Positions 4,574-47,445 of a stretch of 64,000 nucleotides of DNA are shown one piece after another. The stretch spans positions 99,730 to 163,729 of the forward strand of contig OZ242948.1 of assembly GCA_965211635.1 (NCBI GenBank), written 5' to 3'. Position 1 is the first letter of the stretch. The number at the start of each line of letters is the position of its first letter. A program made the position numbers and the translations under genes. Source of the stretch: Dehalococcoidia bacterium. GTDB taxonomy: Bacteria > Chloroflexota > Dehalococcoidia > Bin125. Under the pieces are notes generated by a model, which did no database searches, was not told the origin of the DNA, and worked only from the letters and a program-made list of their open reading frames with translations.

Positions 4574-4624
4574 CTCTCCCCCCGCGCAAGCGGGGGGAGA
4601 TGCCGAAGGCAGAGGGGGGCTCCC
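4574..4624 (+). repeat. REP/RPE-like structured repeat, copy 1 (core)
   Basis: ctctccccccGCGCAAGCggggggagATGCCGAAGGCAGaggggggctcc. C6/G6 hairpin, a small GCC-GAA-GGC hairpin, then a G-run. Lies between convergent ruvA and the VOC gene. Confidence 0.85.
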
Positions 4625-4719
4625 GCGCTCGAACTTACCTCCATCCCGCCGACCACCTGATGCCAAGCCAGGCCGGATCCCTCCCCAATCCCCAGGTCGG
4701 ATGGCCTCGTCGGCCTTCA

Positions 4720-5103
4720 CTACGTCTGCATGATCTGGATCAGGTTGCCGCAGGTGTCGTCGAAGACCGCAATAGTGACATCGCCCATCGCTGTCGGCTC
4801 CATCACGAAAGCGACGCCCAGCGACTTCAGCTTCTCGTGCTCTGCGTGGATGTCCGTAACGCCAAAGGAGGTCGCTGGGATGCCCTGATCAAACAACCCT
4901 TTCTGGTATGCCTGCGCTACCGGGTTTTCGTTCGGTTCGAGCAGCAGCTCGGTCCCATCTGGGTCATCGGGCGAGACGACGGTCAACCACTTGAACTCCC
5001 CCGCAGGGACTTCTTGCTGCTTCACGAATCCCAGGATCTCTGTGTAGAACCTCAGAGCGTCGTCCTGATCGCCTACGAACACGCCGGTGTGGGTAATGCG
5101 CAT
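4720..5103 (-). CDS. VOC/glyoxalase-bleomycin resistance family protein
   Basis: MRITHTGVFVGDQDDALRFYTEILGF… is a glyoxalase-fold N-terminus. The ORF extends to 5157, but the MRITH start (5103) avoids overlap with arsR. Confidence 0.6.
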   Translation of the reverse strand: MRITHTGVFVGDQDDALRFYTEILGFVKQQEVPAGEFKWLTVVSPDDPDGTELLLEPNENPVAQAYQKGLFDQGIPATSFGVTDIHAEHEKLKSLGVAFVMEPTAMGDVTIAVFDDTCGNLIQIMQT

Positions 5104-5144
5104 GTCTAGTCTCCTGTATTGCTCAGCCTGTTGTTCCCAGCGTG

Positions 5145-5417
5145 CTACTTGAGCCATCGATCCATGGCAGCTCTGAGAGGTTCGTCGTTGAAGACGAGCA
5201 TCCGATACTTGCCGCGCTTCTCCGAGCTCACGAGCCCTGCTTGCTCCAAGACATCGATGTGCTTAGCCATGGCCTGTCGCGAGATAGCGATTTCATGCCT
5301 CATGATCATGCGCGCGGTGAGCTCGTATAGCGTCTGCTCGTTGCGCTCGGTGAGTTCGTCCAGCATCAACCTCCGCGTTGGGTCCGCGAGCGCCCTGAAG
5401 ACCAGGTCGTTGTGCAT
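5145..5417 (-). CDS. ArsR/SmtB family transcriptional regulator
   Basis: …FRALADPTRRLMLDEL…TLYELTARM…ISRQAMAKHIDVLEQAGLV… is the ArsR wHTH. Start taken at MHNDL (the ORF extends to 5450). Confidence 0.7.
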   Translation of the reverse strand: MHNDLVFRALADPTRRLMLDELTERNEQTLYELTARMIMRHEIAISRQAMAKHIDVLEQAGLVSSEKRGKYRMLVFNDEPLRAAMDRWLK

Positions 5418-5432
5418 GCGGAGTAATGTTAC

Positions 5433-5448
5433 GCAACCACATGGTTGC
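5433..5448. promoter_or_regulatory. Candidate ArsR operator (6-4-6 inverted repeat GCAACC-acat-GGTTGC)
   Basis: Perfect inverted repeat 16-31 nt upstream of the arsR start codon. ArsR/SmtB regulators typically autoregulate through such palindromes. Confidence 0.3.
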
Positions 5449-5514
5449 ATGTCAAGTGGCAGTCTCCAGGGCAGACAGGTTCCAATACCCTGAACTGCGC
5501 GAAACAGCCCTCAA

Positions 5515-5528
5515 TGTTCAATAGAACG
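5515..5528. promoter_or_regulatory. Candidate SOS/LexA-type box TGTTC-N4-GAAC upstream of uvrB
   Basis: TGTTCaataGAACg lies ~90 nt upstream of the uvrB start. Resembles the TGTTC-N4-GAACA-type LexA motifs described in some phyla. Assignment is speculative. Confidence 0.2.
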
Positions 5529-5615
5529 CATGTCCATGTATGATCGTCACAACCAGCGCATCCTCAGCGCGAACAGCAACTCCACGATGCCGACAATCTC
5601 GCTAAGCTCTCTCTG

Positions 5616-7757: not shown

Positions 7758-7887
7758 CCGTCGAATCTGGTGGATTGCTGCTTTGCCGTCCTGCGCTGCT
7801 CTTGATACCGTCAAGCCGACGCTTCCACGTCCGCGCTGTTATCATCTTGCGCGCCTGTCGTGGCAGGCGTGTTGAGGGTGTGCACTC

Positions 7888-8727: not shown

Positions 8728-8851
8728 TTCCGTTTGGAGAGCTGCCCGCAAGTCGCCATGAGTCGGCCCCGCGCCGGCGTGGCCTTCCGGCGCCTATCGA
8801 GCCGCGGATCCTTAGCCCACGGAGAACCCCCTGCGTACGCCTCCGCTTCCT

Positions 8852-8990
8852 CTCTCCCCCGCGAAGCGGGGGGAGATGCCGAAGGCAGAGGGGGTCCGGC
8901 TCGGAGGGAACCCGCGGCTTCCCCCCCAGTCCACCCAATCGAGTCGGGGTTTGGCTATACGGCGCAGGTTCCCCCCGAGGGGGAAGCGGG
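8852..8990 (+). repeat. REP/RPE-like repeat, copy 2 (core 8852-8888 plus extended tail with a C-run/G-run hairpin)
   Basis: Core: ctctcccccGCGAAGCggggggagATGCCGAAGGCAGagggggtcc. Tail contains gcttccccccc … ggttccccccgagggggaagcgg. Lies between convergent cyclase and ftsK. Confidence 0.8.
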
Positions 8991-9051
8991 TGTTCGCAAC
9001 GGTCTCCTTGCGTGGGGACGTCATCGTCACGGGACCACCCGCAGGTCTCCG

Positions 9052-11685
9052 CTACGAGTTCGCCAACACGCGGCGCGAGCGTCCGCCATCCGAGGACTCG
9101 ATCACCCCCGTCTGTTCGAGCTGCTCGATCAACCGCTCGGCCCGCGGCCGACCAATCCGCATGCGACGCTGCAGCAACATCGCCGACACGCGTTCGTACT
9201 CTCGAGCCAACTCCGTGGCCTCGCCCAGCCGCGAGTCCATAGCCTCCTCGCGTCCCACTTCCATAGGGGAGTCGCCACGCGATATCGTTCCCTCACTCCC
9301 CCCTGAAAGGGGGGAGCTGTCGCGAAGCGACTGAGGGGGGTCCGCCTCCACGACGATGTCCGACACCTGCTCGGATCCCTCAGCCTCAAGCGCTGCCTCC
9401 AGTGTCGTCGTCAATGTCCGCAGGTCGGCTTGCGCAGCGCGCGCTTCCGACTCCGCCGCTGCCGAGGACTCATCCGAGAGCTCTTCCAGCATCACGTCAA
9501 GTGATGTGCGGTCGGTCGCCGACTGTGTCGGGGCTGTCCAGGCCTCGAGGATTCGCTCGATCTCGGCGTCGGAGACGAACGCCCCCTGCACGCGTCGTGG
9601 CTTGATCGAGTCCGAGGACATGTACAGCATGTCGCCGCGTCCCATCAGCTTCTCCGCGCCCGCCCGATCCATGATCACCCGCGCATCGGTCTGCGACGTC
9701 GTCGCGAACGCGATCCGCGTAGGGAAGTTTGCCTTGATCAGACCGGTGACGACGTCAACCGACGGTCGCTGGGTCGCCACCACGAGGTGAATGCCCACCG
9801 CGCGGGCCAGTTGCGCCAGTCGCACCAACTGGCTCTCGACCTCGGCCGCTGCGGCCATCATCATGTCCGCCAGTTCGTCCAGGACCACGACCCAGTAGGG
9901 CATTCGCTTCTCGACGTGGTCCAGTTCGTTGAAGGCGACAATGTTTCGAGCCTTGTTGCTCTCGAGCTGTCTGTAGCGTCGCTCCATCTCGGCTACCACG
10001 ACGCCAAGCACCGAGACTACCTCGTCCGACTCGGTCACCACGTGCGAGAAGGCCAGGTGCGGCGCGCTGCCGTAGTTGGTGAGTTCGACCCGCTTGGGGT
10101 CAACGAGGATCAGCCGCACTTCCTCAGGTGACTTCTGCATCAGCAGAGAAGAGATGATCGTGTTGATGCAGACCGACTTGCCCGATCCGGTCGCACCCGC
10201 GATCAACACATGTGGCATCCGCGTCAGGTCGGCGATCACCGGGTTGCCGCGTACGTCGCGGCCCAGCGCGATCGGCAATCCCACCTGCTGCGCGGCATGG
10301 GCGAACTCCTCCGACTCGATCAAGCCTCGCAGGGCCACGATCCGCGTGTCGGCGTTGGGCACCTCGACGCCGACTATTGGCTGCCCCGGCACCGGGGCTT
10401 CGATCCGAATCGAAGGCGCCGACAGGGCCAGCGCCAGGTCGTCCGACAGTCGCGTAATCCGGTTGACCCGTACTCGGGTTCGAGAGACCTCCTCCATTTG
10501 CATCATGGGGCGCTTGTGCTGATCCAAGAGCGGCGCGCCGGTCTCATCTCTCACTGCAACCTGCCGCGTCTTGATCTCCCAGCCTGGCTCGACTCCGAAC
10601 TGCGTGATTGCCGGCCCCTCGTTGATCTGCGTCACGCTCGCGTCAACGCCGAACGAGGCCAAAGTCTCGACAATGATCTGGGCCTGTTTCTCCGCCCCGG
10701 TGCGAAGCGTGACTGCCGGATCGTCATCCAACAGGTCGATAGACGGCAACCGCCAGCCGTCGCTCGCCGTGCGGTCGAGCGTGCGCAGTGCGGTCGGAGG
10801 CTTCTTTCGCTCTGCGGTTTCGGGCGACGTTGGTTGTCCGGCTCTCGCCTGCGCCTCTGTCAACGGCGGCCAGGTCTCTTCGGCGCTTTGCGTCGGCAAG
10901 GCCGCCGACGCCGATCGGCGGTCTGTGGCTGTCGGCTGGAGAGGCGGCGCCTCCTGAGTCGGCGCGCCGAGCATGTCGGGATCGTCGTGGCTTGTGCGGA
11001 GCACGCGAAGCGCATCCCAGATCTCGCGGCCGAGCCAGACGACCAGCAGCCCGAGTTGGCGCAGCGACCACAGGATCCCAGCCCAGAACCATCGCCCAAT
11101 CGAGGCAAGAGCCAACGGGCCTCTCTCGCGAATCTCTCGCCCCAAACGTCTGACCCAATCATCAAGCCTCTGCCGAGCAGCGATCAGCATCCGTCTCGCC
11201 AGGCCGGGCGCGACCAGCGCAAACGACAAGGCCAGGCCGAACAAGATGAAGAGCCAGCCGACTGGCGAGTCCAGCCATCCTCCGACCTGTCCACCTGCGC
11301 CGTACTGCGCGAGGGGCACGCCACCGAGCGATGCGTCAACCGAGATCGCGCCCGCGACGCCCCAGACCGCGATCAAGCCGAGGCCGATGCCAATGCTTCG
11401 AGCGATCAGTCGTCGATCCTTAAACAGGGCCTGTCGCACGCGCTTCCAGCCGACTGCCGCTCCCGCCACCGCGAAAGCGAATGCAAGTAGATACGCGCCG
11501 CCGCCCAACCACTGCACGACCGACTCGCGCTGATCCTGCAGCGGCAGCGAAGCTACCGTCACCCACGTCGCCGCCAGGACGGCGAATCCAATCAGCAACG
11601 CCCCCAGGACCTTGCGCCGATGCGTCGCCAGCCAGAGAGAAATGCGGTCAGGTAGCGCCTGACGGTTTGCCCTGCGTCTCGCCAT
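9052..11685 (-). CDS. ftsK: DNA translocase FtsK
   Basis: N-terminal TM segments. Motor domain …LIAGATGSGKSVCINTII…DELADMMM…. C-terminal gamma wHTH (…RMRIGRPRAERLIEQLEQTGVI…). Confidence 0.9.
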   Translation of the reverse strand: MARRRANRQALPDRISLWLATHRRKVLGALLIGFAVLAATWVTVASLPLQDQRESVVQWLGGGAYLLAFAFAVAGAAVGWKRVRQALFKDRRLIARSIGIGLGLIAVWGVAGAISVDASLGGVPLAQYGAGGQVGGWLDSPVGWLFILFGLALSFALVAPGLARRMLIAARQRLDDWVRRLGREIRERGPLALASIGRWFWAGILWSLRQLGLLVVWLGREIWDALRVLRTSHDDPDMLGAPTQEAPPLQPTATDRRSASAALPTQSAEETWPPLTEAQARAGQPTSPETAERKKPPTALRTLDRTASDGWRLPSIDLLDDDPAVTLRTGAEKQAQIIVETLASFGVDASVTQINEGPAITQFGVEPGWEIKTRQVAVRDETGAPLLDQHKRPMMQMEEVSRTRVRVNRITRLSDDLALALSAPSIRIEAPVPGQPIVGVEVPNADTRIVALRGLIESEEFAHAAQQVGLPIALGRDVRGNPVIADLTRMPHVLIAGATGSGKSVCINTIISSLLMQKSPEEVRLILVDPKRVELTNYGSAPHLAFSHVVTESDEVVSVLGVVVAEMERRYRQLESNKARNIVAFNELDHVEKRMPYWVVVLDELADMMMAAAAEVESQLVRLAQLARAVGIHLVVATQRPSVDVVTGLIKANFPTRIAFATTSQTDARVIMDRAGAEKLMGRGDMLYMSSDSIKPRRVQGAFVSDAEIERILEAWTAPTQSATDRTSLDVMLEELSDESSAAAESEARAAQADLRTLTTTLEAALEAEGSEQVSDIVVEADPPQSLRDSSPLSGGSEGTISRGDSPMEVGREEAMDSRLGEATELAREYERVSAMLLQRRMRIGRPRAERLIEQLEQTGVIESSDGGRSRRVLANS
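9293..9343 (+). repeat. REP/RPE-like repeat variant embedded in-frame in the ftsK linker
   Basis: ctcactccccccTGAAAggggggagCTGTCGCGAAGCGACTGaggggggtcc. Same three-part architecture as the core, with different loops and a compensatory second stem. Confidence 0.7.
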
Positions 11686-14159: not shown

Positions 14160-14274
14160 CCGAGTCCCCCTCTCCCCCGCTCTGCGGGGGAGATGTCCCG
14201 TAGGGACAGAGGGGGCTCCGGCGCCAATGTAGGCGCGGGCCCCTTCACCCACTACGCGGGAGCTTCCCCCAAGG
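14160..14274 (+). repeat. REP/RPE-like repeat, copy 4 (covariant core 14160-14209 plus tail hairpin 14252-14274)
   Basis: ctctcccccGCTCTGCgggggagATGTCCCGTAGGGACAGagggggctcc. Loop 1 is altered. Stem 2 is changed compensatorily (GCC/GGC to GTCCC/GGGAC). Tail: gcttcccccaaggggggaagcgg. Confidence 0.8.
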
Positions 14275-14292
14275 GGGGAAGCGGCACTGAAC

Positions 14293-27224: not shown

Positions 27225-28049
27225 ATGGCCGATCCCGATCTCCTGCCGCCCGATCAACGCCTGGACATCGACCGCGTCCGCGCGTTGCTCACGACTTCCG
27301 AGGTTGGACGCAGTCTTCACTATCTCGTCCAGACGACCTCGACCATGGACGACGCCCGACGACTCGCCAACGAAGGCGCGCCGCACGGCGCCGTCGTCCT
27401 GGCCGACGAACAGACCGCCGGCCGCGGAACCAAGGGACGCATCTGGGTCTCGCCGCCCGGTGAGAGCATCCACGCCACGATCATCGTCCGCCCCGACATC
27501 GAGCAGCTCAAGCGGCTCAGCATCATCAGCCCGGTCGCCACGACCGACGCCGTCCTGGCGACAACTTCTCTGCGACCAACGATCAAGTGGCCCAACGACA
27601 TCCAGATCGAGTCACGCAAGCTGGGGGGCATCCTGATCGAAGCCGAGTGGGGCGATGGTCAGCCCCGCTACGCGCTGGTTGGGATCGGACTCAACATCAA
27701 CTTCGACCCCGCGCCCTGGGCAACGCAGATCGACCGTCCCGCCACCAGCCTGATGATCGAGCTGGGTCAGCGCCAGCAGCGCGAACCGGTCCTCGCCGCG
27801 CTGATCAACGCAATCGAGCGTCGCCTCTTGGAAGCCGCTTCGGCGGAGCTGCATCGAACCTGGAAATCAAGGCTCGACACGCTCGACAAGCCAGTCACGA
27901 TCAGCTCGCCAGGCGGTGGTGAGTTTCATGGAGTCGCCGTTGACGTTGACGAGGCAGGAGCGCTCATCGTGCGAGCAGACCACGGCGAGCGCCGGACATT
28001 CATCGCTGGCGAAGTCACGCTCCGGGAAACGACTCAATCGGAGTCGTGA
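27225..28049 (+). CDS. birA: Biotin--[acetyl-CoA-carboxylase] ligase (group I, no DNA-binding domain)
   Basis: …ADEQTAGRGTKGRIWVSPPG… and …KWPNDIQI… are BPL catalytic motifs. Confidence 0.85.
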   Translation: MADPDLLPPDQRLDIDRVRALLTTSEVGRSLHYLVQTTSTMDDARRLANEGAPHGAVVLADEQTAGRGTKGRIWVSPPGESIHATIIVRPDIEQLKRLSIISPVATTDAVLATTSLRPTIKWPNDIQIESRKLGGILIEAEWGDGQPRYALVGIGLNINFDPAPWATQIDRPATSLMIELGQRQQREPVLAALINAIERRLLEAASAELHRTWKSRLDTLDKPVTISSPGGGEFHGVAVDVDEAGALIVRADHGERRTFIAGEVTLRETTQSES

Positions 28050-31000
28050 GCGCCGGCCCTGTTCGTTCGAGAAGCAGGGCAGGCGCAGTCACTCGTCCGT
28101 CCCAGGGCAGCAGCGACCATGTTCCGTCGATCAGATCGAGCACGCAGCCACCAACGAGCGGCACCGCTTCCCGGCCCCCGACGAATGCCTGCATCCTTTC
28201 GGCCAAAGGAACTCCATCCGGATCGGTCCAATCGAGCAACCACGCCTTTACCCGTTGCGCCTTGGCGTTCCAACAGTCAGTCGGCGTGGAGTCGATGCGC
28301 CTCAGCATCTGATCCGCGTTGGTCAACCGCCGAAACGCGATGTGTACGGGTTCCACGTCCAATAGCGACGCATCTACCGTTAAGGTCGTACCGCCGCGTA
28401 CTACGGTCGTCTCGCCTAGTCCGCCTTCTGCAACGAACCGCATGCCGGCGCTTGCAGCGAACTCCCTGGCCAGCTCGCGCTCGAACTTTGTTTCACCGCC
28501 CATCGAACGCATGCGGGCATCGTCAATCTTCGCATCGACAGATCGAGGCCGACCGGTCGCATTGCCGGCCCAGATCTCGAATGCGGCCAGCGGCAAGCCC
28601 GAGGTATCCCTCACCGAACCGTTCGCGCCCGGTTCGTAACTGACCCGCACGGCGTCCAATGATGTGATCCGTTCAGACAGCGTCGCGGTCAGTTCGTACT
28701 CGGACCACGACATCGTGGCGACCGCAATGGTCCGCAAACCGGCGACCACCTTGAAGTCGCTTGGGAGCGCTTCGGCTCCACTGACCTGCTGATCGAATAC
28801 TGCTGTGATTGTGAAGGAATCGGCGGTTATCGACTCAACTCTCGGCGGCGTCTCTGTCAGGTTGCTGACCAGGAACACGCTGTCGGGCACTCTCGCTCCC
28901 GTCAGGCCGGAGATGCCGCCGCGCGAACCGGCGAGGTAGACGACACCGAACAGGTCCGGCTCGTCCGGCAAGGAGTCCGCCAGGATCAACGTCACCGCGG
29001 CTCCGCCAATCGAAACAGACTCCACATCCGTTGATAGCCCTCCCCCGACAATCTGGAATCTTGATGCTGCAATGCTCGTTGCCGACAAGGGCTGGTCGAA
29101 CCGGAGCACCACAAGTGTGCCGAAGGCATACGCGTTCTCGAGCGTCGGCGCGGCCGTCTCGTCGATCACATCGGTCTCGAACGGGGCCACGGTCAGGCCA
29201 TCGCCGGTCAGGGACTCACCGAAGTAGCTCAGGCGACGATCCTGGCCCGCGCGCAAGCCGGGCGGTGACATCTGCAGCTCCAACTCAGAGCCCTCGACCC
29301 GCTTGACCGACTCCACCACAGCCTCCCCGCTGATCGCAAATTCGGATGCCAGAGGGAGCGACTCGTCAAGCCGTGAGTCGAAGCCGACGCTCAGCCGAAC
29401 CTGGTCCGCGTGAGCGCTCAGCGCGCATGGAGCCGCCGCAGCGATCAACCGATTCAATGCCAGACGAGCCGCATCCTCCGCGCCGGAGTAGCGCAGCTCG
29501 ACAAAGTCGCCCGAGCAGATTGCCACGCCGGGCCGCAGCTCGACGGATTCGAGGGCCTCGATCACGGAGAATGGTCGCTGTTCTCCGTTGACAATCAGCT
29601 CCCATGAGTGATCTGGCCGGTCGGGCGAGCCAATCTCGTCATCGAACGTCAGAACCACTCCACCCACGTCCGAGCCAATACAGCGCAGCGCCCACTCTCG
29701 GTCGATAAAGTTGGTGACGCCAAGAGAAAATGACCCAACCCCGCGATTCCTCGCGTCGTACAGTTGCGTACGACTGGAGTCGTACTCGACGAGCACTTCG
29801 ACGCATTCGGGCGCAGCATCTTCAAGCCGGATGGTGAGCAAGTCAGCCATCGCCGAAGCCGACTTGACCGATGCGGCTACACCATCGACCGACACGTTCA
29901 GATCTGAGTGGTCGACCGACGCCAGCGCCAGCAGCGGGCCGTCAAAGCCAACCACGACCAAGTCGGGGGTCGTACGATCAATCGAGGCCGTCACCGCGCG
30001 TGCTGCGGTCAGATTCGAGACGTCCGCTTCGATGAACCCGTCGACCGTGTTGCCTGTCTCGTCCTCGAGGTTGAATCGGCCGTCTTCAATGGACTGGCCG
30101 ACGTACTCCAAGCGAACGGGCTCATCCGGCTGTAAGCGACGTGCAAGAGTCAGTGTCAACGTGTCGGACTCGAGCGCGATGTCCTCTATGCCAATCTCGC
30201 TTGCCGACTGACCAAAGACAGAGAACCAGACCAGGTCTGCGTTGTCGTCACACTCGAAGTCCTCGATCTCGCTCTCCAGGGTTTCGCACTTCGGAGGTGG
30301 TAACTGAGCGGGGTTCAGCGGTTGGTCGAAGGTGATCGTGATTAAGTCATCCCTGGCAACGATGTTCTCCACTTGCGGAGCCACATCGACGCTGTTCGTT
30401 ACTGCTTGGCTGAACGAGACCACCTGATTGCCTGCATCGTCGTCCTGCAGGCCACCTGAGTCCGGCGCGGAGTAGCTCAGTGTGATGTCCCAGCTCTCGC
30501 GAATCGGAGTCGTGGAACCGATCGTGAGCACCATCCTGTACTCGCCGTCCGTCTCCAAGGTGCGGACAACCGGATCGATGTCAGTTTCTGGCTCGGTGCT
30601 GAACCAGGACGGGTCGATAGACACGGGGGCCAGTACGCGCTGGTCAAACAGGACGGTGATGCTCTGCCCGTCGGCGTCGGTGTGTGCGCTGAGCGGGTAC
30701 GGCGCATAGTCGGTCAGGTTCTCCACAGCCAAGTCTTCGAATCCAAGCGCTCGCGTGCTGTTCACACCGAGCAGGGCGTCGGACTCAGGCGGCGAGTAGC
30801 TCAGCGAAAGCTCGTCGTTGTCTTCGACAACTGACTCATCCAGTGTCAACTGCAGGGTCTGCTGCTCAACTGCTATCGACCTAACGGCGGCGGCTGTACC
30901 GACCAGTTCAAATGCTGCCGACTCCGGAAGAGCGGCTGCGTCCAGTTCACCGTCGAAGATGACTTCCAGGACTCGACCATCGACACTGGCCGACTGTGCG

Positions 31001-34000
31001 CTCGCGGGCGTCACGTTGCGCAGCGGAAACGCGTTGATCTGCGCACGTTGTTGGCCCGGATCGTCGTCCCGGATTCTGATCGTTCCGAACGTAGGGAAGT
31101 ACGTGATCGAAATCTCGTCAGCGGCCGCGACGCGATCTGTCAGGCTGACCACAATCTTGCCGACTCCATCTGGCCCATCGGCGAACACGTGAACTTGTCT
31201 GATCCCGATACCAGTTCCGTCGAGCGTGAAGTGCTCGACTGGAAACGCCAGAGGATTTCCCTCCTCGTCTCGAAAGCGTGGGTCGGCAAAGATCTCCTGG
31301 TCAAGGATGACCACGATCTCGTCGCCGTCGATCGTCCCGGATGCCGGAATCGGCGGCGTGTCTGTCTGATTGTCAATGTCTGTGGTGAAGGACTCCGATT
31401 GATTACCTGTGAGATCGACCACGCCGCCTTGATCGGGTCGCGAGTACGTCAACGTGACCGACTCGTCCTCGGTCAGCGATTGGGACAGCGTCAACGTCAA
31501 TGTCTGACCATCGATTGAGTACGCCGTGACTGTCCTTGGGTCATCGTTGCTCAACGCGAACGACGCGAGCGAGACTGCCGCTTCGCCGTCCAGCGACTGG
31601 TCAAAGGTGAGGATCACGACCGCACCGTTGCCGACAGCGGTCGTCAGCTCCGCAGCGGTATCGGTGTTGTTGGTCAGCGACTCCGAGAAGGACGCGACCG
31701 CTTCATCGTCCAAAGTCCTGAGCGGCGTTTCTGACGGTCGCGTGTACGTCAACGTGTACTCGGCGCCCTCTTTCAGCGGAGTCGCCAGGGTGAGGCTCAA
31801 GGACATCGAGTTCACTACCACATCTTTGACCGTCGGTCCGTCCACACCAAGCGAGAACGCCGATGCAGCCGGCGTCGAATTGGTGTTCAACTCCTTCGAG
31901 AATGCGATCAGCACCTGCGATCCGTCACCGTCAACCGAACGGATCAGCGGCTCCGGGGTCCGGTTGTCCACCTCGAACCCGCCGAACGCAGCGACCTCGA
32001 GCGTTGTGCCTTGTCGCTTCAGTCTCGGTGTGTCCTCGGCCGAGTAGGAAACAGTGACCTGGTCTACAAATGCAAGCGGGGCGGCGAGTGTCAGCCTCAC
32101 ACTCGCCCCGTCGATCGAGACCGCGCTCACCGAGTGTCCTGCCGGCGTGACGCTGAAGTCGGCCATCGCGGGGACAGAGGATTGGTCCAGGGCGCGGTCG
32201 AACTCAAGCGTGACTACAGCCCCATTGGCCAACGCGCCGAGCGGACGAGGCACGCCGTCTGCCCTGTTGTCCACCGACTGGCTCGACCAGGCCGGACTCT
32301 TCCACGTGGCGTCGGCGCTCTGAAGCGCCGGGTCAGTCTCGGCGCCGGGCGACTTGTAGCCGATGGTCGCTGTCTCATTCAGATCGGCGGCCGGATCGAG
32401 GCTCAGCAACACGGTCGAGCCGCTTATCGAGACAGTCGCAACAGCCGCCGATGTCGTGCCGCCCAGCTCAAACGCCGACTTCGCAGGCGTGCCCGCCTCT
32501 GTGTCCAGTAGCGGCCCGGTCATGTGGATCGTCAACAGGCGGCCAGTGGCGTCGATTGAAGCCGAGTGGAACACGGGCGTCGGGTCCACGGTCAGGTTGT
32601 CGACTGTAAGCGACGCGAAACTGTCCACCTTGATCTCCTGCCCCGCACGCTTGAGCGCCGACTCGGTTGGCTGGGTGTAGGCAAGGACCAGTGTGTCCAG
32701 GTGGGTGACCGCAGCACTGAGCGTCAACGTCACTTCTTGTCCCGCTATCGACACGCCGGCGACTTCTGTAGAGCTCAAGCTCAGGCTGAACGCGGAAGCG
32801 GCCGGCGAAGACGAACCATCCAGTACCCGATCAAAACCCACGACCAGTACAGAGCCGTCAACGGTAGCCGAGCGAGGACGCGGCTTGCCGTCGGCATTGT
32901 TGGTCACGCTCTTCGACATGAACGCCTTGACCGCCTGCAAGTGGGCCAGAGAATGCAGTCGCGCCGCCGAAGAGTCAGTCGGCGGGGAGTAGTCGACCGT
33001 GATGGTCTCGCCAACGTCGGCCATTGGATCCAGGGATAGCGACACGCTCGACCCGCTGACGGCGACCGAATCGACCGCTGCGCTACCACCCGCGAGGGAG
33101 AACGTCGAAGCATCGGGCGTGTGCTCCTCGGACTCATCGAGAGCAAGCGAGAACGTGATGGTCAGCGTTGCGCCGTCTGCAGAAATCGAAGCGCTCTCAA
33201 ACTCCGGAGCCGGTGCGACGGTGTTGTTGGTCACCGGTTGATTCGTGAACGAAGCCGCGTCCAGGTTGTTGCGCGCTTCAATCCGAGGAGGGGCGTTCGG
33301 CTTCGAGTAGCTGATGGTGATGACCGCTCCGGCCGCCACTGCTTCGGAGAGCGTCAGGGTGACCGACTCATCGCTGAACGAGGACTCGGCGACCGTTACT
33401 CCCGACGCCCCGCCGATCGAGAACGCAGTTGCGGGCGCGACATTCTTGAGCGGCAAGTCGAACTCCACCGTCAGCGTGTCGTCGTTCACACGAGCTTCCG
33501 TGACTTCGGGCTTCTTCGTTGGCGTCTTGCTCTTGAACTGAAACCCGTAGACGTCTGCCACATTGTGTCCGCCGTCGAGCTGACGCAATGGGGACTCGTT
33601 CGGTTCGGTGTAATCGATTGTGTAGTTCGTCTCTCCGCCGGCGAGGATGCCGTTCAAGGTGAGCGAGACGGTGTCGCCGGAAATCTCTACTTTCGTGATC
33701 TCGCGTCCCTCAATCGAGAACGCGTCCCGTTCCGGAACGCTGTCTTCATCCAGCGCTTCCGAGAACACCAGGGTGACGATCTCGTACAGCGCCGACGCCG
33801 ATTGGAGCGTAGGCGGACTATCGACGATGTTGGTCACCGACCGTGCCGACCAGCTCTGCACGTGCTTGCCGCCCTGATCGAGATCCTGGAGCGGATAGTT
33901 TTCGTCGCCCAGCGCCTGGTCGTAGGCAAGCGTGACACTCTGGCCTTCGACCACTGACCGGCTCAGTTGGATGTCAAGTCGCTGGGGCGCGTCTGACGGG

Positions 34001-34575
34001 CGTATCAGGTCGGAGATGTCGGCGTCGTTGTCATCAACTTCGATGTCGAATGCCGAGAAGTCGGACCACTGGAAGCTGATGTCGCGGATCGGCTCGCAGA
34101 AGGTGACTTGTATGAAGCGGCCATCAGCGTCAGTCTCGACCGACGTGATCTCCGGCGCCGCGTCCGTGACGTTGTCGACGCTCTGGTCATCGAATGATTC
34201 GACTGCTCCCCCGCTCACTCCGACTAACGACGAAGCGCTGGGAATGTAGCTGACGCTGACGCTGCGGTCCGTACAGTCGATGTCCGCAATAGCATCTTCC
34301 AGGGTCAGACTTATCACGGCGCCGTCGATTGAGGCTGAGTCGACCGTCTGCGTCTCGTCGCCCAGCTTGACCGTGAAGTCTGCGGCGACGGCTGTGCTCG
34401 TTGCGGTCAGGTCTTCAGAAAGCGTAATCGTAAGTGTTGACCCATCGACCTGCGCCGCGCTCACCGCTGGAGGGCTCTGGGAAGCGGCGCGGCTGGCAAT
34501 CAGTGCTACTGCGATTGCCAATAGCGAGGCGGCGACGAGGGTCGCAAGCGATCCACTTCGACTCGCCCAGGGCAT
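28015..34575 (-). CDS. Giant (2186 aa) secreted/cell-surface protein with ~17 tandem ~100-aa Ig-like repeats and a unique ~170-aa C-terminal domain
   Basis: N-terminal signal peptide. Repeats follow the pattern SASIDGxxLTITFSxxLD…AFSL…VxSVxVSGxxVxLxL…TVxYxxP…LxDxxGNxxxSFxxQxVTNNT. Convergent 35-nt overlap with birA. GC is slightly below the flanks. Confidence 0.8.
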   Translation of the reverse strand: MPWASRSGSLATLVAASLLAIAVALIASRAASQSPPAVSAAQVDGSTLTITLSEDLTATSTAVAADFTVKLGDETQTVDSASIDGAVISLTLEDAIADIDCTDRSVSVSYIPSASSLVGVSGGAVESFDDQSVDNVTDAAPEITSVETDADGRFIQVTFCEPIRDISFQWSDFSAFDIEVDDNDADISDLIRPSDAPQRLDIQLSRSVVEGQSVTLAYDQALGDENYPLQDLDQGGKHVQSWSARSVTNIVDSPPTLQSASALYEIVTLVFSEALDEDSVPERDAFSIEGREITKVEISGDTVSLTLNGILAGGETNYTIDYTEPNESPLRQLDGGHNVADVYGFQFKSKTPTKKPEVTEARVNDDTLTVEFDLPLKNVAPATAFSIGGASGVTVAESSFSDESVTLTLSEAVAAGAVITISYSKPNAPPRIEARNNLDAASFTNQPVTNNTVAPAPEFESASISADGATLTITFSLALDESEEHTPDASTFSLAGGSAAVDSVAVSGSSVSLSLDPMADVGETITVDYSPPTDSSAARLHSLAHLQAVKAFMSKSVTNNADGKPRPRSATVDGSVLVVGFDRVLDGSSSPAASAFSLSLSSTEVAGVSIAGQEVTLTLSAAVTHLDTLVLAYTQPTESALKRAGQEIKVDSFASLTVDNLTVDPTPVFHSASIDATGRLLTIHMTGPLLDTEAGTPAKSAFELGGTTSAAVATVSISGSTVLLSLDPAADLNETATIGYKSPGAETDPALQSADATWKSPAWSSQSVDNRADGVPRPLGALANGAVVTLEFDRALDQSSVPAMADFSVTPAGHSVSAVSIDGASVRLTLAAPLAFVDQVTVSYSAEDTPRLKRQGTTLEVAAFGGFEVDNRTPEPLIRSVDGDGSQVLIAFSKELNTNSTPAASAFSLGVDGPTVKDVVVNSMSLSLTLATPLKEGAEYTLTYTRPSETPLRTLDDEAVASFSESLTNNTDTAAELTTAVGNGAVVILTFDQSLDGEAAVSLASFALSNDDPRTVTAYSIDGQTLTLTLSQSLTEDESVTLTYSRPDQGGVVDLTGNQSESFTTDIDNQTDTPPIPASGTIDGDEIVVILDQEIFADPRFRDEEGNPLAFPVEHFTLDGTGIGIRQVHVFADGPDGVGKIVVSLTDRVAAADEISITYFPTFGTIRIRDDDPGQQRAQINAFPLRNVTPASAQSASVDGRVLEVIFDGELDAAALPESAAFELVGTAAAVRSIAVEQQTLQLTLDESVVEDNDELSLSYSPPESDALLGVNSTRALGFEDLAVENLTDYAPYPLSAHTDADGQSITVLFDQRVLAPVSIDPSWFSTEPETDIDPVVRTLETDGEYRMVLTIGSTTPIRESWDITLSYSAPDSGGLQDDDAGNQVVSFSQAVTNSVDVAPQVENIVARDDLITITFDQPLNPAQLPPPKCETLESEIEDFECDDNADLVWFSVFGQSASEIGIEDIALESDTLTLTLARRLQPDEPVRLEYVGQSIEDGRFNLEDETGNTVDGFIEADVSNLTAARAVTASIDRTTPDLVVVGFDGPLLALASVDHSDLNVSVDGVAASVKSASAMADLLTIRLEDAAPECVEVLVEYDSSRTQLYDARNRGVGSFSLGVTNFIDREWALRCIGSDVGGVVLTFDDEIGSPDRPDHSWELIVNGEQRPFSVIEALESVELRPGVAICSGDFVELRYSGAEDAARLALNRLIAAAAPCALSAHADQVRLSVGFDSRLDESLPLASEFAISGEAVVESVKRVEGSELELQMSPPGLRAGQDRRLSYFGESLTGDGLTVAPFETDVIDETAAPTLENAYAFGTLVVLRFDQPLSATSIAASRFQIVGGGLSTDVESVSIGGAAVTLILADSLPDEPDLFGVVYLAGSRGGISGLTGARVPDSVFLVSNLTETPPRVESITADSFTITAVFDQQVSGAEALPSDFKVVAGLRTIAVATMSWSEYELTATLSERITSLDAVRVSYEPGANGSVRDTSGLPLAAFEIWAGNATGRPRSVDAKIDDARMRSMGGETKFERELAREFAASAGMRFVAEGGLGETTVVRGGTTLTVDASLLDVEPVHIAFRRLTNADQMLRRIDSTPTDCWNAKAQRVKAWLLDWTDPDGVPLAERMQAFVGGREAVPLVGGCVLDLIDGTWSLLPWDGRVTAPALLLERTGPALTTPIESFPGA

Positions 34576-44887: not shown

Positions 44888-45774
44888 TGAGCGCGGCGCA
44901 GGTTCAGAGCCCCTACGTGTCGGCCTCGCAGGAGACGGGGCCGATCGCAGTATTGCTCCATGCCCGCTATCTGGCCGCAAGAGCAATTCGCGAGTCCCTG
45001 CGTCAGCCCGGCGTCGAGATCACCAACGTCTTCATCCCGCTCTTCTTCCTCGCCGTCTCGACCGGGGCGATCGCCAACTTCTCCGAGCGCGGCTTCGGCG
45101 TCAACAACTACCTCGCCTTCCAGCTCCCCGTCGCCGTGTTGCAGGCGGTGGCCGGCTCTTCCGCCGCCTCCGGCATCGCAATCGTGCTCGACATGGAGCG
45201 CGGCTACTTCGACAAGCTCTTGCTCACACCAGCCTCGCGCTGGGCGATCATCATCGGCCGAGTCTGGGCCGACGCAGTGCGCGCCATCTTCTTCGCCACG
45301 ATCATGCTGATCGCGGCGCTCGCAGCCGGTTCCGGCATGGCAACAGGCGTGGGCGGCGCGCTGCTGATCCTGATCATCGCCGGACTCTTCGGCGGCGCCT
45401 ACAGCGGGATTGGCATCTTCATCGCCATGCGCACTGGTAATGCGCAGGCCGCCCAGGCCGGATTCCTGCTCTTCTTCCCGCTGCTCTTCATGGCGCCCGC
45501 CTTCGCCCCGCTGGCCGTCTTCGACGACTGGCTGCGCTGGATCGCGACTGTCAACCCGGTCACTTACATCATGGAAGGCATGCGAGGCCTGGTGATGGAG
45601 GGCTACGCCTGGCCCGTTACCGAGGGAGGCCAGATCGTCTTCGGCCCCGATGGGCTGCCGATGACGAAGGACCCGCCCGGTCTGCACTGGGCCTTCGTCT
45701 CCCTGGCCGGCTTCAGCGTCTTCACCCTCACCATCGCCGCCCTCGCCCTCCGCTCCCGAACCCGCGCCGACTAG
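44887..45774 (+). CDS. ABC-2 family transporter permease
   Basis: Six hydrophobic segments. Start overlaps the ATPase stop. Confidence 0.85.
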   Translation: MSAAQVQSPYVSASQETGPIAVLLHARYLAARAIRESLRQPGVEITNVFIPLFFLAVSTGAIANFSERGFGVNNYLAFQLPVAVLQAVAGSSAASGIAIVLDMERGYFDKLLLTPASRWAIIIGRVWADAVRAIFFATIMLIAALAAGSGMATGVGGALLILIIAGLFGGAYSGIGIFIAMRTGNAQAAQAGFLLFFPLLFMAPAFAPLAVFDDWLRWIATVNPVTYIMEGMRGLVMEGYAWPVTEGGQIVFGPDGLPMTKDPPGLHWAFVSLAGFSVFTLTIAALALRSRTRAD

Positions 45775-45810
45775 CTTTCCAGTCCCTGCTTCCCGCAGAG
45801 TTCTGTTCCC

Positions 45811-45859
45811 CTCTCCCCCCGCGAAGCGGGGGGAGATGCCGAAGGCAGAGGGGGGCTCC
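45811..45859 (+). repeat. REP/RPE-like repeat, copy 8 (canonical core)
   Basis: ctctccccccgcgaagcggggggagatgccgaaggcagaggggggctcc. Confidence 0.85.
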
Positions 45860-45928
45860 CCGCCCAACTTCACAGCGTCGGTTACCGTTGCCATCGAATC
45901 GCATTGAAGAGTTAGTGAAAGCGTCGTC

Positions 45929-46693
45929 ATGCCCAGACCCCGAGTTCTGCAATGGATCCCAATCGCGCTCGTCGCTGTAATCGCCGTCCTGATCGGCACG
46001 GTTGTGCTGACCACCGCCGACGACTCAGACGACTCCGCTCAGGACGTCCGCATCCTCGCCCGGCAGACCGGCGACGGTCGTGCCGAGGTCGCGCTCCAGG
46101 TCCGCGCCGATGATCACACCTGGGGCGAGCGCGTCCTCCCTGAGCAACGATTCCTCGCGCCGGATTCCGAAGCGGGACTCTGGCGGGCGAGCTCGATCAT
46201 CACGGTGGAAGCCGAGGATGACTCGGATGGCGTCGATCCAGCCGCCTTCGGCCTGACCGCAACCGCCGAAATGCGCGGACCCGACGGCGAGCCGATGGGA
46301 GCCGTCACCATCATCCAGGCTCCACGCGGACTCCTGATCCAGGCGCGCCTGACCGCTGTACCTGAAGGCTGGCATGGGTTCCACATCCACGAAACGGGAT
46401 CCTGCGAGCCCGACTTCTCGGCCGCCGGCGGACATTACAACCCGACCGGCATCGGTCACGGCATTCTGCACGAGGCTGGACATCACCCAGGCGACACAGT
46501 CAACATCTACGCGCACGCCGACGGCACGGCCAACGCCGACCAGTACACGGTTGAAGCCACGCTCGGCGCAGGTGCGGCTACCCTGTTCGATGCCGACGGC
46601 TCCGCCATCATCGTGCACGAAGGCCCGGACAGCTACGGCGCCGAGCCCGGCGCCGGCGGTCGCGTCGCCTGCGGCGTCATCACCCTCAACTGA
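45929..46693 (+). CDS. sodC: Membrane-anchored Cu/Zn superoxide dismutase
   Basis: N-terminal TM. …HGFHIHETGSC…AGGHYNP…GDTVNI…IVHEGPD…GGRVACGVI…. Confidence 0.85.
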   Translation: MPRPRVLQWIPIALVAVIAVLIGTVVLTTADDSDDSAQDVRILARQTGDGRAEVALQVRADDHTWGERVLPEQRFLAPDSEAGLWRASSIITVEAEDDSDGVDPAAFGLTATAEMRGPDGEPMGAVTIIQAPRGLLIQARLTAVPEGWHGFHIHETGSCEPDFSAAGGHYNPTGIGHGILHEAGHHPGDTVNIYAHADGTANADQYTVEATLGAGAATLFDADGSAIIVHEGPDSYGAEPGAGGRVACGVITLN

Positions 46694-46725
46694 CCCGCAA
46701 GCGCCCACTTCCCCTCCCTTCGGTT

Positions 46726-46873
46726 CCCTCTCCCTGAGGAGAGTTGCGCGTAAACCAACCTAAGTCGGCCCCGCGCAGGCGGGGCCCCGCGATGCCTATC
46801 TGGTCACGACGCCCCCGCCTGCGCGGGGGCGACTTCATGGAGGGATTGCGCGCAGGTCTCCTGAGGGAGAGGG
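46726..46873. repeat. Palindromic composite element (two REP-like half-units in inverted orientation)
   Basis: Arms: ccctctccctgaggagagttgcgcg (46726-46750) and cgcgcaggtctcctgagggagaggg (46849-46873). Internal hairpins: ggccccGCGCAGGCggggcc (46767-46786) and cgcccccGCCTGCGCgggggcg (46810-46831), whose loops are mutual reverse complements. Confidence 0.7.
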
Positions 46874-46978
46874 TTGGGGTGACGGCCCCTCCCCTGTCCT
46901 GACCAGTTGCCCGACAATCCCCCACTCGATAGCCTCAGAATGCATCCGACCATTGAAGCATCCCAAGAGGAGCACCGA

Positions 46979-47383
46979 ATGTCCTTGTTCCAGACCGCCT
47001 CCGCCCACTGCGACCTGCCTTGCGGCGTCTACGACCCCGCCCAGGCCAAGATCGAAGCGATGTCCGTCCTCAAGTCGATGGAGAAGTACAACGACTCCGA
47101 CGACCACGACTTCAAGGCCCGCTGCACCATCGTCAAGGAACAGCGCGCCGAGGAGGTCAAGCACCACCTCTGGGTCCTCTGGACCGACTTCTTCAAGCCC
47201 CACCACCTCGAGGCCGACGCCTCGATCCACGAGCTCATGTGGAACGCGACCAAGGTCGCCGGCGAAGCCAAGAAGACCAACGACGTCGCCAAAGGCCAGG
47301 AACTGATCGACCTGATCGACCAGATCAGCGACAAGTTCTGGGCCACCGCCGAGGGTCCGGGCGCCGGCGTCTACGCGCAGTAG
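46979..47383 (+). CDS. sodN: Nickel superoxide dismutase precursor
   Basis: Pro-peptide MSLFQTASA, then the Ni-hook HCDLPCGVYDPAQA… of mature Ni-SOD. Alternative starts in the ORF are at 46907 and 46940. Confidence 0.85.
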   Translation: MSLFQTASAHCDLPCGVYDPAQAKIEAMSVLKSMEKYNDSDDHDFKARCTIVKEQRAEEVKHHLWVLWTDFFKPHHLEADASIHELMWNATKVAGEAKKTNDVAKGQELIDLIDQISDKFWATAEGPGAGVYAQ

Positions 47384-47395
47384 GACTGCGGTTCC

Positions 47396-47445
47396 CTTCT
47401 CCCCCCGCGAAGCGGGGGGAGATGCCGAAGGCAGAGGGGGGCACC
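47396..47445 (+). repeat. REP/RPE-like repeat, copy 9 (canonical core)
   Basis: cttctccccccgcgaagcggggggagatgccgaaggcagaggggggcacc, immediately after the sodN stop. Confidence 0.85.

Follow-up and report, generated by a model that had tools for sequence, protein, structure and literature searches.

The window that we analyzed, a stretch of 64,000 nt from a Dehalococcoidia bacterium, contains nine copies of a repeat of about 55 nt. The preliminary description had named nine sites for this repeat, and all nine are present. The pattern GGGGGAGN{8,38}GAGGGGG has exactly nine matches, all on the + strand (0.03 expected from shuffled sequences), and the 13-mer ATGCCGAAGGCAG occurs exactly six times, again always on the + strand. 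A covariance-model scan of the window retrieved eight copies at E ≤ 5e-5 and the remaining one, copy 5, at E = 0.022; three copies are identical over 49 nt. The claim that all copies lie on the + strand holds for nine out of nine (two-sided binomial P = 0.004). No independent − strand copy was found in the window by the fuzzy scan or by the covariance-model scan with filters off, and the − strand matches returned by the covariance model all score lower and re-read either the palindromic hairpin 1 or unrelated small hairpins.

Copy 1 (4571..4626, +; 38.7 bits) lies between convergent genes with the ruvA stop 70 nt upstream, and copy 2 (8847..8902, +; 35.2 bits) is found 125 nt past the stop of a cyclase-domain gene that converges with ftsK. 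Copy 3 (9290..9345, +; 27.9 bits) sits inside the coding sequence of ftsK (9052-11685, − strand), where its in-frame translation, ...DPPQSLRDSSPLSGGSEG..., falls in the linker that precedes the gamma domain. Copy 4 (14160..14221, +; 40.1 bits) is flanked by udg and tatC, both on the − strand. Copy 5 (21331..21409, +; 16.9 bits) has an RNase H gene 19 nt upstream and the RNase P RNA gene downstream. The next unit (21856..21944, +; 38.8 bits) starts 17 nt downstream of the RNase P RNA match; a repeat does occur at 21856, as initially described, but it is a partial unit of 33 nt (21856-21888) and the full copy 6 spans 21889-21944. Copy 7 (22804-22859; 38.8 bits) closes a + strand array (22695..22859) that begins with three 36-nt tandem partial units (22695-22803). 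Copy 8 (45807..45862, +; 38.8 bits), our reference copy, lies 37 nt past the stop of an ABC-2 permease gene, and copy 9 (47393..47448, +; 39.8 bits) 13 nt past the stop of a Ni-SOD gene that converges with a GmrSD-type gene. Overall, six or seven of the nine copies follow a + strand gene or the RNase P RNA gene at a distance of 11-125 nt, the exceptions being copies 3 and 4. The initial statement that orientation is kept regardless of the flanking genes is therefore too broad. When searching Rfam 15, only RNase P RNA and one tRNA reached the gathering threshold in the window.

All nine copies present the same order of blocks from 5' to 3': a pyrimidine block (Y), a loop, a purine block (R), a second hairpin and another purine block (R'). 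In copy 1, these are TCTCCCCCC, GCGCAAGC, GGGGGGAGA, TGCC-GAA-GGCA and AGAGGGGGG, respectively. In copy 8, a 5' C-run (45808-45811) is followed by Y (45812-45820), the mini-hairpin loop GCGAAGC (45821-45827), R (45828-45836), hairpin 2 (45837-45847), R' (45847-45855) and the tail CTCCCC (45856-45861). Loop 1 is 5-8 nt long in the window and hairpin 2 is 11-17 nt long, except in copy 5, where it reaches 35 nt and holds an additional inserted hairpin (GCCCCCGCGAAGGCGGGGGGC). Copy 5 has one T interruption in Y, and copy 2 opposes C5 in Y to G6 in R with one bulged G. The variants initially reported for copies 3 (loop 1 TGAAA, stem 2 GTCGC/GCGAC) and 4 (loop 1 GCTCTGC, stem 2 GTCCC/GGGAC) were read correctly, and the complete hairpin 2 of copy 4 is TGTCCC-GTA-GGGACA. 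The 3' G-run had been treated as a loose appendage of the hairpins; it is instead R', a mirror copy of the purine arm of hairpin 1 that covaries with it in register. In six copies, R and R' can be matched over 8-9 consecutive canonical G.G-C and A.A-T triplets (nine in copy 1 and eight in copy 4). Loop 1 of the window (GCGAAGC) and the hairpin-2 loops of the family match the mini-hairpin DNA motifs GCGNAGC/GCGNNAGC and CCGAAGG, and the RNA versions of such mini-hairpins are much less stable than the DNA versions (PMC13037366).

Related elements were found in about ten phyla. A covariance model (R1) built on 12 elements of genome-scan loci only, mostly Mesorhizobium and other Rhizobiales, recovers the window copies at E~1e-7. 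Relatives also contain two subtypes, A and B, arranged in inverted pairs, as well as composites of about 230 nt with terminal inverted sequences (GAGACYGATGCAT.../...ATGCATCAGTCTC), and gut-metagenome contigs contain MITE-like units. The persistence of inverted pairs in relatives would need a separate explanation if one orientation is counter-selected. Across the family, hairpin 2 presents 24 distinct 5' arms and the loop types GGCA (32), GAA (21), GGA (7), GCA (4) and GTA (2). No Rfam 15 family passed the threshold at the elements of 31 other loci, and scans based on E-values returned only noise.

Both hairpins covary across about 100 elements. In the test of hairpin covariation (94 distinct elements), 98.4% of the cells were paired and 83 were double-changed, which was reached by none of 500 shuffles. 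These results support the earlier suggestion that the stems have undergone compensatory changes under selection on structure. The third block covaries in mirror register over the same elements (about 100): T-A occurs with A, C-G with G and G-C with T. The genome scan put no constraint on the flanking positions N1/N2/N3, and the hairpin-type elements presented T/A/A in 53 cases (two more with G), C/G/G in 33 cases (one more with A) and G/C/T in 8 of 8. All three classes are found in the window's own lineage; copy 3 is of the G/C/T type, here with A.C at N1/N2. T on C-G would correspond to a T.C-G triplet, for which no supporting text was found in the literature searched. The complementarity of N1 and N3 (T-A, C-G, G.T) suits a three-way junction equally well as a triple. 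Among hairpins collected without forcing a pattern, 34 had a perfect downstream mirror copy together with a direct copy at least two mismatches off, and the reverse was observed for three. When aligned with a model in which R' is left unpaired, Y and R' were complementary in parallel register at 97.3% of the cells, with double changes at three positions (23 cells; reached by 0 of 500 shuffles) and covariation at positions 4/80 and 5/81; within the core, few changes (1 + 2 sequences) are informative, and the elements, gathered by two collection scans that each fixed part of the sequence, are not independent.

The copies are gained and lost rapidly. At the related locus L120, the ftsK copy is kept with a compensatory change (GTCGC/GCGAC to GCCGC/GCGGC), and it is absent or degenerate at L121. 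Copies 1, 2 and 4 are missing at the orthologous sites of L120: the site of copy 2 is empty with an intergenic gap of 1 nt, and the site of copy 4 is empty with a gap of 6 nt. Such orthologous sites lacking copies occur in relatives whose UvrB proteins are 94-96% identical. Of the intergenic singletons of relatives, 10 have an upstream gene on their own strand, at 4-138 nt past its stop, and 6 have one on the opposite strand.

We further analyzed the orientation of the elements. Genes on the + and − strands are about equally frequent in the 1-48 kb domain of the window, yet all nine copies are on the + strand. On a related contig of 740 kb, singletons are all on the − strand over 0-360 kb (6 copies) and all on the + strand over 660-720 kb (4 copies), and the strand of the element tracks the sign of the GC skew. 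In 20 of 25 singletons examined, the element lies on the C-rich strand. Another locus (L123) contains at least three copies of another subfamily, all on the + strand, with a skew of −0.12. The co-orientation thus extends beyond what could be a chance property of the window, since the same domain-scale pattern is found on the 740-kb contig. The preliminary description had left open a replication-strand bias or a function at the transcript level: the former fits better, because the co-orientation is domain-wide and follows the sign of the GC skew, and the latter fits less well. We infer the leading strand from the skew alone, and no origin marker was found within the window.

Because R' is a mirror copy covarying in register, we place the element with the BoxC/PIT/TMECO repeats of E. 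coli and other bacteria, known as potential intrastrand triplexes (Hoyne et al. 2000; Holder et al. 2015, PMC4666352). Like them, it presents on one strand a pyrimidine block, a loop, a purine block, a loop and a reverse-Hoogsteen block (class II purine motif), is G/C-rich and mostly intergenic, and differs sharply in copy number between close relatives. In both, the third block is a mirror image of the purine block that places A or T opposite A-T, and the A and B subtypes of relatives form inverted pairs as in TMECO. The second loop, a mini-hairpin capped by GNA or GNNA, sets this variant apart from the BoxC/PIT/TMECO layout: it is 11-17 nt long (up to 35 nt) versus 3 nt. Published triplex searches allow loops of 0-10 nt (Hoyne) or 1-6 nt (ITxF), and TMECO has loops of N3-6 and N3 (Holder et al. 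2015, PMC4666352); loop 1 of the window element is acceptably short, and loop 2 is outside the Hoyne and ITxF limits. The blocks TCTCCCCCC / GGGGGGAGA / AGAGGGGGG also differ from the TMECO consensus CCCTCNCCC-N3-6-GGGNGAGGG-N3-GGGNGAGGG. Moreover, window-type singletons keep one orientation over large domains, in contrast to the absence of strand bias in TMECO (13+/10−), one copy lies in a coding region and the host belongs to the Chloroflexota. Oligonucleotides of TMECO adopt a triplex in vitro (PMC4666352), but neither double-stranded DNA nor in vivo DMS footprinting of TMECO revealed a stable one (Holder et al. 2015, PMC4666352).

Other known systems resemble the element in part. As in REP/BIME repeats (Di Nocera et al. 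2013, PMC3733652), the copies are short, abundant, GC-rich intergenic hairpins, often 3' of genes, with compensatory stem changes. However, they present a third mirrored block, two hairpins and no GTAG/CGTC tag. The initial assignment to the REP type fails because this tag is not consistent: of the 8 copies checked, only 3 have one within 12 nt, and it does not come from the same source each time. In addition, no RAYT gene was found among the window genes scanned. The comparison with Rickettsia palindromic elements, also proposed initially, is an analogy drawn from the single copy in frame in the ftsK linker and goes no further. Those elements are 100-150 bp long and specific to Rickettsia, and insertion in genes is their rule; here, 1 of 9 copies is in a coding region. 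The element also shares homopurine mirror symmetry and a purine-motif triplex with H-DNA mirror repeats such as (GAA)n, whose effects reportedly depend on orientation relative to replication, but here all three triplex strands come from one DNA strand and the element is short and dispersed. Finally, the exact motifs GCGAAGC and CCGAAGG occur as nuclease-resistant, SSB-refractory mini-hairpins at the phage G4 origin and RSF1010 ssiA (Hirao review, PMC13037366). Those are single functional primase sites, whereas the window motifs cap a dispersed repeat.

The simplest interpretation is that of a repeat, selfish or structural in nature, that persists by its single-stranded-DNA fold. We would give roughly even chances to the specific proposal that the repeats are solo non-coding potential-intrastrand-triplex DNA repeats of the BoxC/PIT/TMECO kind (class II), with a mini-hairpin as second loop, whose persistence depends on this fold. 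The DNA-type loops, the mirror register and the replichore-scale co-orientation with the sign of the GC skew favor a structure of single-stranded DNA over one of RNA. When the + strand is single-stranded, TCTCCCCCC would pair with GGGGGGAGA in a hairpin of 9-11 bp capped by the GCGAAGC mini-hairpin. The second mini-hairpin (GCC-GAA-GGC) would make a tight turn that sets AGAGGGGGG antiparallel to the purine arm, allowing G.G-C and A.A-T triples. Such a triplex may form in the window element and may matter during replication, and the orientation bias could result from the loss or non-insertion of copies that place the folding strand on the wrong template. The near-identical singletons of the window would derive from a recent burst in this genome. 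More tentatively, and with odds that we place clearly below even, the repeat class may be kept over about ten phyla by selection for a mini-hairpin-capped intrastrand DNA triplex that is polar to replication.

As the main rival in this lineage, the element could be a three-way junction only, in DNA or RNA, in which the C-run/G-run hairpin and the branch hairpin of the 3' arm are closed by R' pairing with a 5' CCCC(T)CT, the mirror symmetry being a by-product of the contact between two similar C/G helices at the TCT/AGA junction. An ordinary Watson-Crick partner for R' does exist in this lineage, since the 5' C-run can pair with it in an outer stem of 6-8 bp in all seven window copies tested. 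A partner of at least 6 bp is found in 56 of 87 metagenome copies versus 7 of 85 controls, N1 and N3 are complementary, and copies 4 and 3 (14160 and 9293) are predicted to fold into a junction both as RNA and as DNA. In canonical copies, however, the MFE DNA fold leaves R' outside any three-way junction with the 5' C-run and the DNA centroid fold leaves it unpaired; these programs omit triples. Furthermore, the genome-scan set, mostly Alphaproteobacteria, lacks the 5' partner (14 of 88 versus 11 of 87 in controls), and its true singletons without one still keep the mirrored R'. The C/G/G and G/C/T classes of the window's own lineage are flanked by GAC/AAC and ACG/TTG/CCG, with no C-run, and in the L123 subfamily (CCCCCCT/AGGGGGG/GGGGGGT), which has no 5' partner, the mirror symmetry includes the A next to the loop. 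In BoxC-like relatives, T stands opposite T-A in 25 of 33 cases and cannot pair with N1 = T, and the parallel-register covariation at 4/80 and 5/81 is not predicted by an antiparallel outer stem. Together, we consider a junction without triplex rather unlikely. A G-quadruplex or protein-binding site made from the two G-runs seems very improbable: two G5-G6 runs around a hairpin might build a two-tetrad quadruplex whose central loop is long, but there are only two such runs, the A/T positions in the purine blocks covary in a mirror register for which a quadruplex has no need, conservation extends to the C-rich partner block, and a mirror repeat has the wrong symmetry for a dimeric site on double-stranded DNA.

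It is improbable, in our view, that the element acts in transcripts as a GC hairpin of 3' UTRs, serving as a terminator or blocking 3'-5' exonucleases like E. coli REP. The placement of six or seven copies past a co-oriented gene or the RNase P RNA gene, and the 10 versus 6 same-strand singletons of relatives, are in line with such a role. The region shows no excess of canonical terminators (11 found versus 9.5 expected), so another termination signal could be in use. Yet neither hairpin is followed by a U-tract and, according to Holder et al. (2015, PMC4666352), the related PIT elements behaved neither as promoters nor as terminators, which speaks against the terminator initially suggested. 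Nor does a transcript role account for the absence of − copies (0 of 9) among similar numbers of + and − genes, the two copies antisense to their genes, the lack of an Rfam match, or the mirrored third block and GNA/GNNA loops, which have no RNA rationale; RNA does not form triplexes of the purine motif (PMC4666352). We hold equally doubtful a mobile element of the REP or MITE type, whose ends would be recognized by a transposase encoded elsewhere (RAYT or another enzyme), the structure being the recognition signal and the orientation bias arising from single-strand, replication-coupled insertion of the IS200/IS605 type. Single-strand transposition is said to give a strand bias tied to replication, and the patchy presence of copies (4574, 8852 and 14160 missing at L120), the three copies identical over 49 nt, and the composites and MITE-like units of relatives point in the same direction. 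Nevertheless, there is no consistent GTAG/CGTC tag, the window singletons have no target-site duplication or terminal inverted repeat around them, no transposase gene was found near the copies (the only recombinase gene, 19208-20674, encodes a serine recombinase) and the mirror-register covariation is left unexplained. Mobility is compatible with a single-stranded triplex fold, and the two are not exclusive.

The BoxC/PIT/TMECO repeats have been known since the 1990s and, to our knowledge, no function has been found for them and there is no evidence for selection on the triplex itself. Published triplex finders miss the hairpin-bearing form, although it occurs in many phyla. The covariation of its three blocks follows a register that a triple helix alone demands, which bears on selection of the triplex itself, and in this lineage the solo copies align with replication-scale domains. 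If the repeat class is indeed kept by selection for such a triplex, this would represent the first comparative (covariation) evidence for selection of DNA triplexes in bacterial genomes. The site of action of the elements would then be the single-stranded DNA of the replication fork, where they could, for instance, signal polar pausing, priming or processing, or alternatively be the substrate of a novel route of single-strand mobilization. For annotation, the family accounts for common G/C-run repeats in high-GC metagenome-assembled genomes and warns that such repeats can sit within genes such as ftsK. Together, the covariation, the spread over phyla and the orientation of the elements make the role of triplex-forming potential in bacteria experimentally testable.

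The repeat family reported in the preliminary description was confirmed, with nine copies in 64 kb (starting at 4574, 8852, 9293, 14160, 21337, 21856/21889, 22807, 45811 and 47396). The loose pattern GGGGGAGN{8,38}GAGGGGG yielded nine matches in the 64-kb window where shuffles predict 0.03, and every one is on the + strand. The 13-mer ATGCCGAAGGCAG presented six exact occurrences in the window, on the + strand every time, and a repeat finder recovered the same element family (D1-D4). The single orientation of the copies was also borne out (9/9 on +; two-sided binomial P = 0.004). No independent − strand copy was found in the window by a fuzzy scan or by a covariance-model scan with filters off, and the − strand matches of these scans are weaker re-reads of the palindromic hairpin 1. 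Two copies need comment: there is an element at 21856, but it is a partial unit and the full copy spans 21889-21944, and copy 21337 carries an extra hairpin inserted within hairpin 2. Eight copies are intergenic; the exception, copy 9293, lies within ftsK (− strand), and its translation forms a stretch of the FtsK linker preceding the gamma domain.

The window UvrB is 96% identical to proteins of Chloroflexota MAGs, a match that served to infer the taxon, and core genes of the window include ruvA, uvrB, ftsK, RNase J, udg, tatC and the RNase P RNA gene. The latter (bacterial class A; 21440-21839, +; 286 bits) has elements on both sides, with the end of one copy ~30 nt upstream and the start of the partial plus full copies 17 nt downstream. 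A 36-nt unit, TTTCCCTCTCCCTCGGCGAAGCGGCGCGGCCGTCAT, combines a degenerate version of the element's left half with GGCCGTCA; it occurs as three tandem repeats before copy 22807 (22695-22803) and once before the full copy at 21889 (21856-21888). A second small hairpin family, (G)CTTCCCCC-N3-GGGGGAAG(C), without a mirrored third block, was found 40-70 nt 3' of copies 8852 and 14160 (at 8968-8990 and 14262-14286). The cyclase-ftsK and sodC-sodN spacers have two more modules in common at 71-73% identity (8729-8798 with 46731-46800; 9009-9050 with 46820-46861), representing another intergenic repeat family. An ORF of 2187 aa (28015-34575, −) contains internal DNA repeats at spacings of 300, 324, 600 and 633 nt, which suggests a repetitive surface-type protein. 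Finally, a large serine recombinase gene adjoins the RNase H gene in the window (19208-21318) and in the related loci L122 (19785-21624) and L123 (19160-21155); in L123 an element copy lies between the two genes.

The reference copy (45807-45862, +) reads CCCC, the pyrimidine block Y (TCTCCCCCC), loop 1 (GCGAAGC), the purine block R (GGGGGGAGA), hairpin 2 (TGCC-GAA-GGCA), a second purine block R' (AGAGGGGGG) and CTCCCC. The blocks described earlier as a hairpin, a small hairpin and a G-run are therefore present, but it had been overlooked that R' is the mirror image of R. With this mirror symmetry, Y, R and R' follow one another, with matching polarity, as the strands of an intrastrand triplex of the class II purine motif do; the triples would be G.G-C and A.A-T. 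Canonical triplets run uninterrupted for 8-9 positions in six copies; a single G is bulged in copy 8852, and the outermost position of copy 9293 is an A.C mismatch. Loop 1 and hairpin 2, which contains CCGAAGG, correspond to the 'mini-hairpin DNA' motifs of Hirao and colleagues; such motifs are poorly bound by SSB, and their extraordinary stability as DNA is much reduced in the RNA form (PMC13037366). On inspection of the sequence, the KOPS-like motif GGGNAGGG is absent from the element.

We then analyzed covariation on a model-made alignment of 100 elements (94 distinct); a MAFFT alignment of mixed copies (A2) misaligned the Y block and was excluded from the statistics. Both hairpins were paired in 98.4% of cells, with seven pairs changed on both sides (83 cells). 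Their covariation score (0.199 vs 0.060) was reached by 0/500 shuffles and slid controls collapsed, which bears out the earlier claim of structural selection with compensatory stem changes. Hairpin 2 presents 24 different 5' arms, and its stem reaches at least 3 bp in 85/105 elements relative to 6% of shuffles. The third block covaries as well. Y and R' compared in parallel register were complementary in 97.3% of cells, and at three positions both partners had changed (0/500 shuffles); such a register cannot be obtained from an antiparallel Watson-Crick helix between Y and R'. Among pyrimidine-purine hairpins that were not forced by the search patterns, 34 had a perfect downstream mirror copy with a poor direct copy, and three the converse; examples are CCCCCCT/AGGGGGG/GGGGGGT (L123) and CCCCTCCCT/AGGGAGGGG/GGGGTGGGT (Sphingomonas). 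When the flanking positions were left free in the genome scan, the outer triplet (Y/R/R') of hairpin-type elements was T/A/A in 53 cases (two more with G), C/G/G in 33 (one more with A) and G/C/T in 8/8, while BoxC-like elements presented T opposite T-A in 25/33. All three classes coexist in the window's own lineage. No literature confirmation of a T.C-G antiparallel triplet was found.

The main rival explanation is that the C-run 5' of Y pairs with the G-run of R', yielding a three-way junction that may be the dominant fold in the window's subfamily. An outer stem of 6-8 bp is indeed available in 7/7 window copies tested, and a stem of at least 6 bp was observed in 56/87 metagenome copies relative to 7/85 controls; copies 14160 and 9293 are predicted to adopt this fold. 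The junction competes with the extended hairpin for a shared TCT. However, the 5' partner is missing from alphaproteobacterial elements (true singletons, i.e., solo elements, included), from two classes of the window's own lineage (C/G/G and G/C/T) and from the L123 subfamily, which argues that the junction is not the general reason for R'. A G-quadruplex was rejected on the covariation of the blocks.

Within the triplex layout, four lines favor folding as single-stranded DNA rather than RNA: the A/T alternation of the purine motif, the loop types, an orientation independent of transcription and its organization by large domains. Indeed, the antiparallel purine motif with A/T alternation opposite A-T does not form with RNA (PMC4666352), and the loops of the element are cGNAg and cGNNAg rather than the GNRA or UNCG loops typical of RNA. 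In the domain from 1 to 48 kb, + and − genes take up ~25 and ~21 kb, respectively, yet there are zero − copies, and two copies are antisense to their genes. A canonical terminator, another candidate, was rejected. The tie to genes is weaker: copies tend to sit 4-140 nt past a co-oriented stop codon (co-oriented vs not, about 17 vs 7 in the window and relatives, a tally that varies with the scoring of three copies near mis-called ORFs).

The + strand GC skew stays below zero from 1 to ~50 kb, regardless of which strand the genes occupy, and turns weakly positive after that; all nine copies lie in the negative part. Metagenome contigs provide close relatives, as indicated by the synteny of L199 with window positions 56-64 kb (~89% amino-acid identity). 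On one 740-kb contig (Ga0209543_1000001), singletons at 17, 182, 215, 216, 354 and 359 kb are on the − strand and those at 660, 669, 717 and 718 kb on the + strand; about 20 of 1024 random arrangements are sorted as cleanly, and the local skew is mostly opposite in sign to the element strand. Of 25 singletons outside the window, all those in loci of ≥5 kb, 20 have the element on the C-rich strand, and L123 carries three or more copies of another subfamily, all on + (locus skew −0.12). No dnaA was found in the window, including near the skew switch at ~50 kb, so the leading strand was assigned from skew alone. Under the usual skew convention the leading-strand template would be the strand that folds; the two RNA genes of the window would fit the opposite assignment. 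The replication-strand bias proposed earlier is thus plausible from domain-scale orientation and skew, while its mechanism is something we infer. Around the skew switch, the region 47471-53142 contains a GmrSD-type endonuclease gene and tRNA-Arg(TCT) (51668-51744, −), and its G+C falls to 0.59 at 48-50 kb; it may mark a replichore boundary or the end of an inversion, or be an island.

Copies are gained and lost among relatives. Three window copies are identical over 49 nt. L120 lacks copies 4574, 8852 and 14160: at the orthologous sites its genes are separated by gaps of 1-6 nt. The ftsK copy is also found in L120, with a compensatory change in hairpin 2, and is missing or degenerate in the Dehalococcoidia chromosome OZ247431.1 (L121). 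Intergenic spacers of locus L121 (18220-18590 and 13100-13330) contain REP-like GTCATTCCCGCG...CGCGGGAATGAC hairpins, tagged with a CGTC-type motif, at places occupied in the window by triplex-type elements; genomes with UvrB proteins 94-96% identical thus differ entirely in what their spacers contain. The usual unit in relatives is a ~230-nt composite in which a type A (GCC-GAA-GGC) and a type B (GTCAC-GGA-GTGAC) element are convergent and inverted, and its outer ends are inverted too; the window contains singletons only. These composites recall the A + B pairs of E. coli TMECO. Those of Alphaproteobacteria may overlap the old 'RIME' elements.

We extended the search to species-representative genomes, fixing the three core blocks and leaving all else free, and identified at least 119 loci. 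The patterns fixed part of each sequence, and copy numbers and taxon lists from the genome and metagenome scans are lower bounds. Among the matches listed, carriers include many Alphaproteobacteria (Mesorhizobium, Rhizobium, Agrobacterium, Sphingomonas, Caulobacter and others) as well as Chloroflexota, Planctomycetota, Actinomycetota, Acidobacteriota, Myxococcota, Bacteroidota, Spirochaetota and Bacillota; some matches, e.g., in a Klebsiella MAG, are of the short-loop BoxC type. An exact 26-mer of a window copy was found, among the matches listed, in metagenome contigs of 33-72% G+C. Because the search pattern was fixed, much of this breadth in G+C and taxa reflects ascertainment. A covariance model (R1) built from 12 unedited elements of genome-scan loci (alignment A4), mostly Mesorhizobium and other Rhizobiales, recovered eight window copies (E = 5e-8 to 5e-5). 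The Rfam search proposed in the preliminary description returned nothing at the elements: by gathering threshold or E-value, no family covers them in the window or the other loci scanned. In human-gut metagenome contigs (L207 3500-4100, L233 5600-6500; ~51% G+C), ~400-nt MITE-like units consist of two inverted elements plus other hairpins, two of them in tandem in L233. In AT-richer contigs (L197 2790-2885; L127, L173, L195, L184), an insert of 40-50 nt that has an extended stem takes the place of loop 1 (TCTCCCCC-AAATCCGAC...GTCGTATTT-GGGGGAGA), which sets Y and R far apart and leaves the R-hairpin-R' core unchanged.

The closest known repeats are BoxC/PIT/TMECO, a class II G/C-rich intrastrand triplex motif (Hoyne et al. 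2000; Holder et al. 2015, PMC4666352). They are intergenic and strain-variable, form a triplex in vitro as single strands with no stable triplex detected in vivo, lack promoter or terminator activity and are linked to local genomic instability (PMC4666352). The window element shares their block order and mirror symmetry but departs from them in loop length, consensus and strand polarity. With such loops, it would have been missed by published searches (loops ≤6 or 10 nt). Our own search by name or printed sequence, with most subscription-journal papers outside its scope, returned primer coincidences only and no paper describing the hairpin-bearing form. The earlier likening to REP sequences did not hold, as there is no tag, and a MITE was rejected for the solo form. 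The earlier interpretation stands in part: the structure is selected and a replication-type bias is plausible. What we infer is that the triplex forms, how replication is involved and how the copies spread. Judged from its sequence, the element is better classed with intrastrand-triplex repeats, as a new variant that bears a hairpin and would act as single-stranded DNA.
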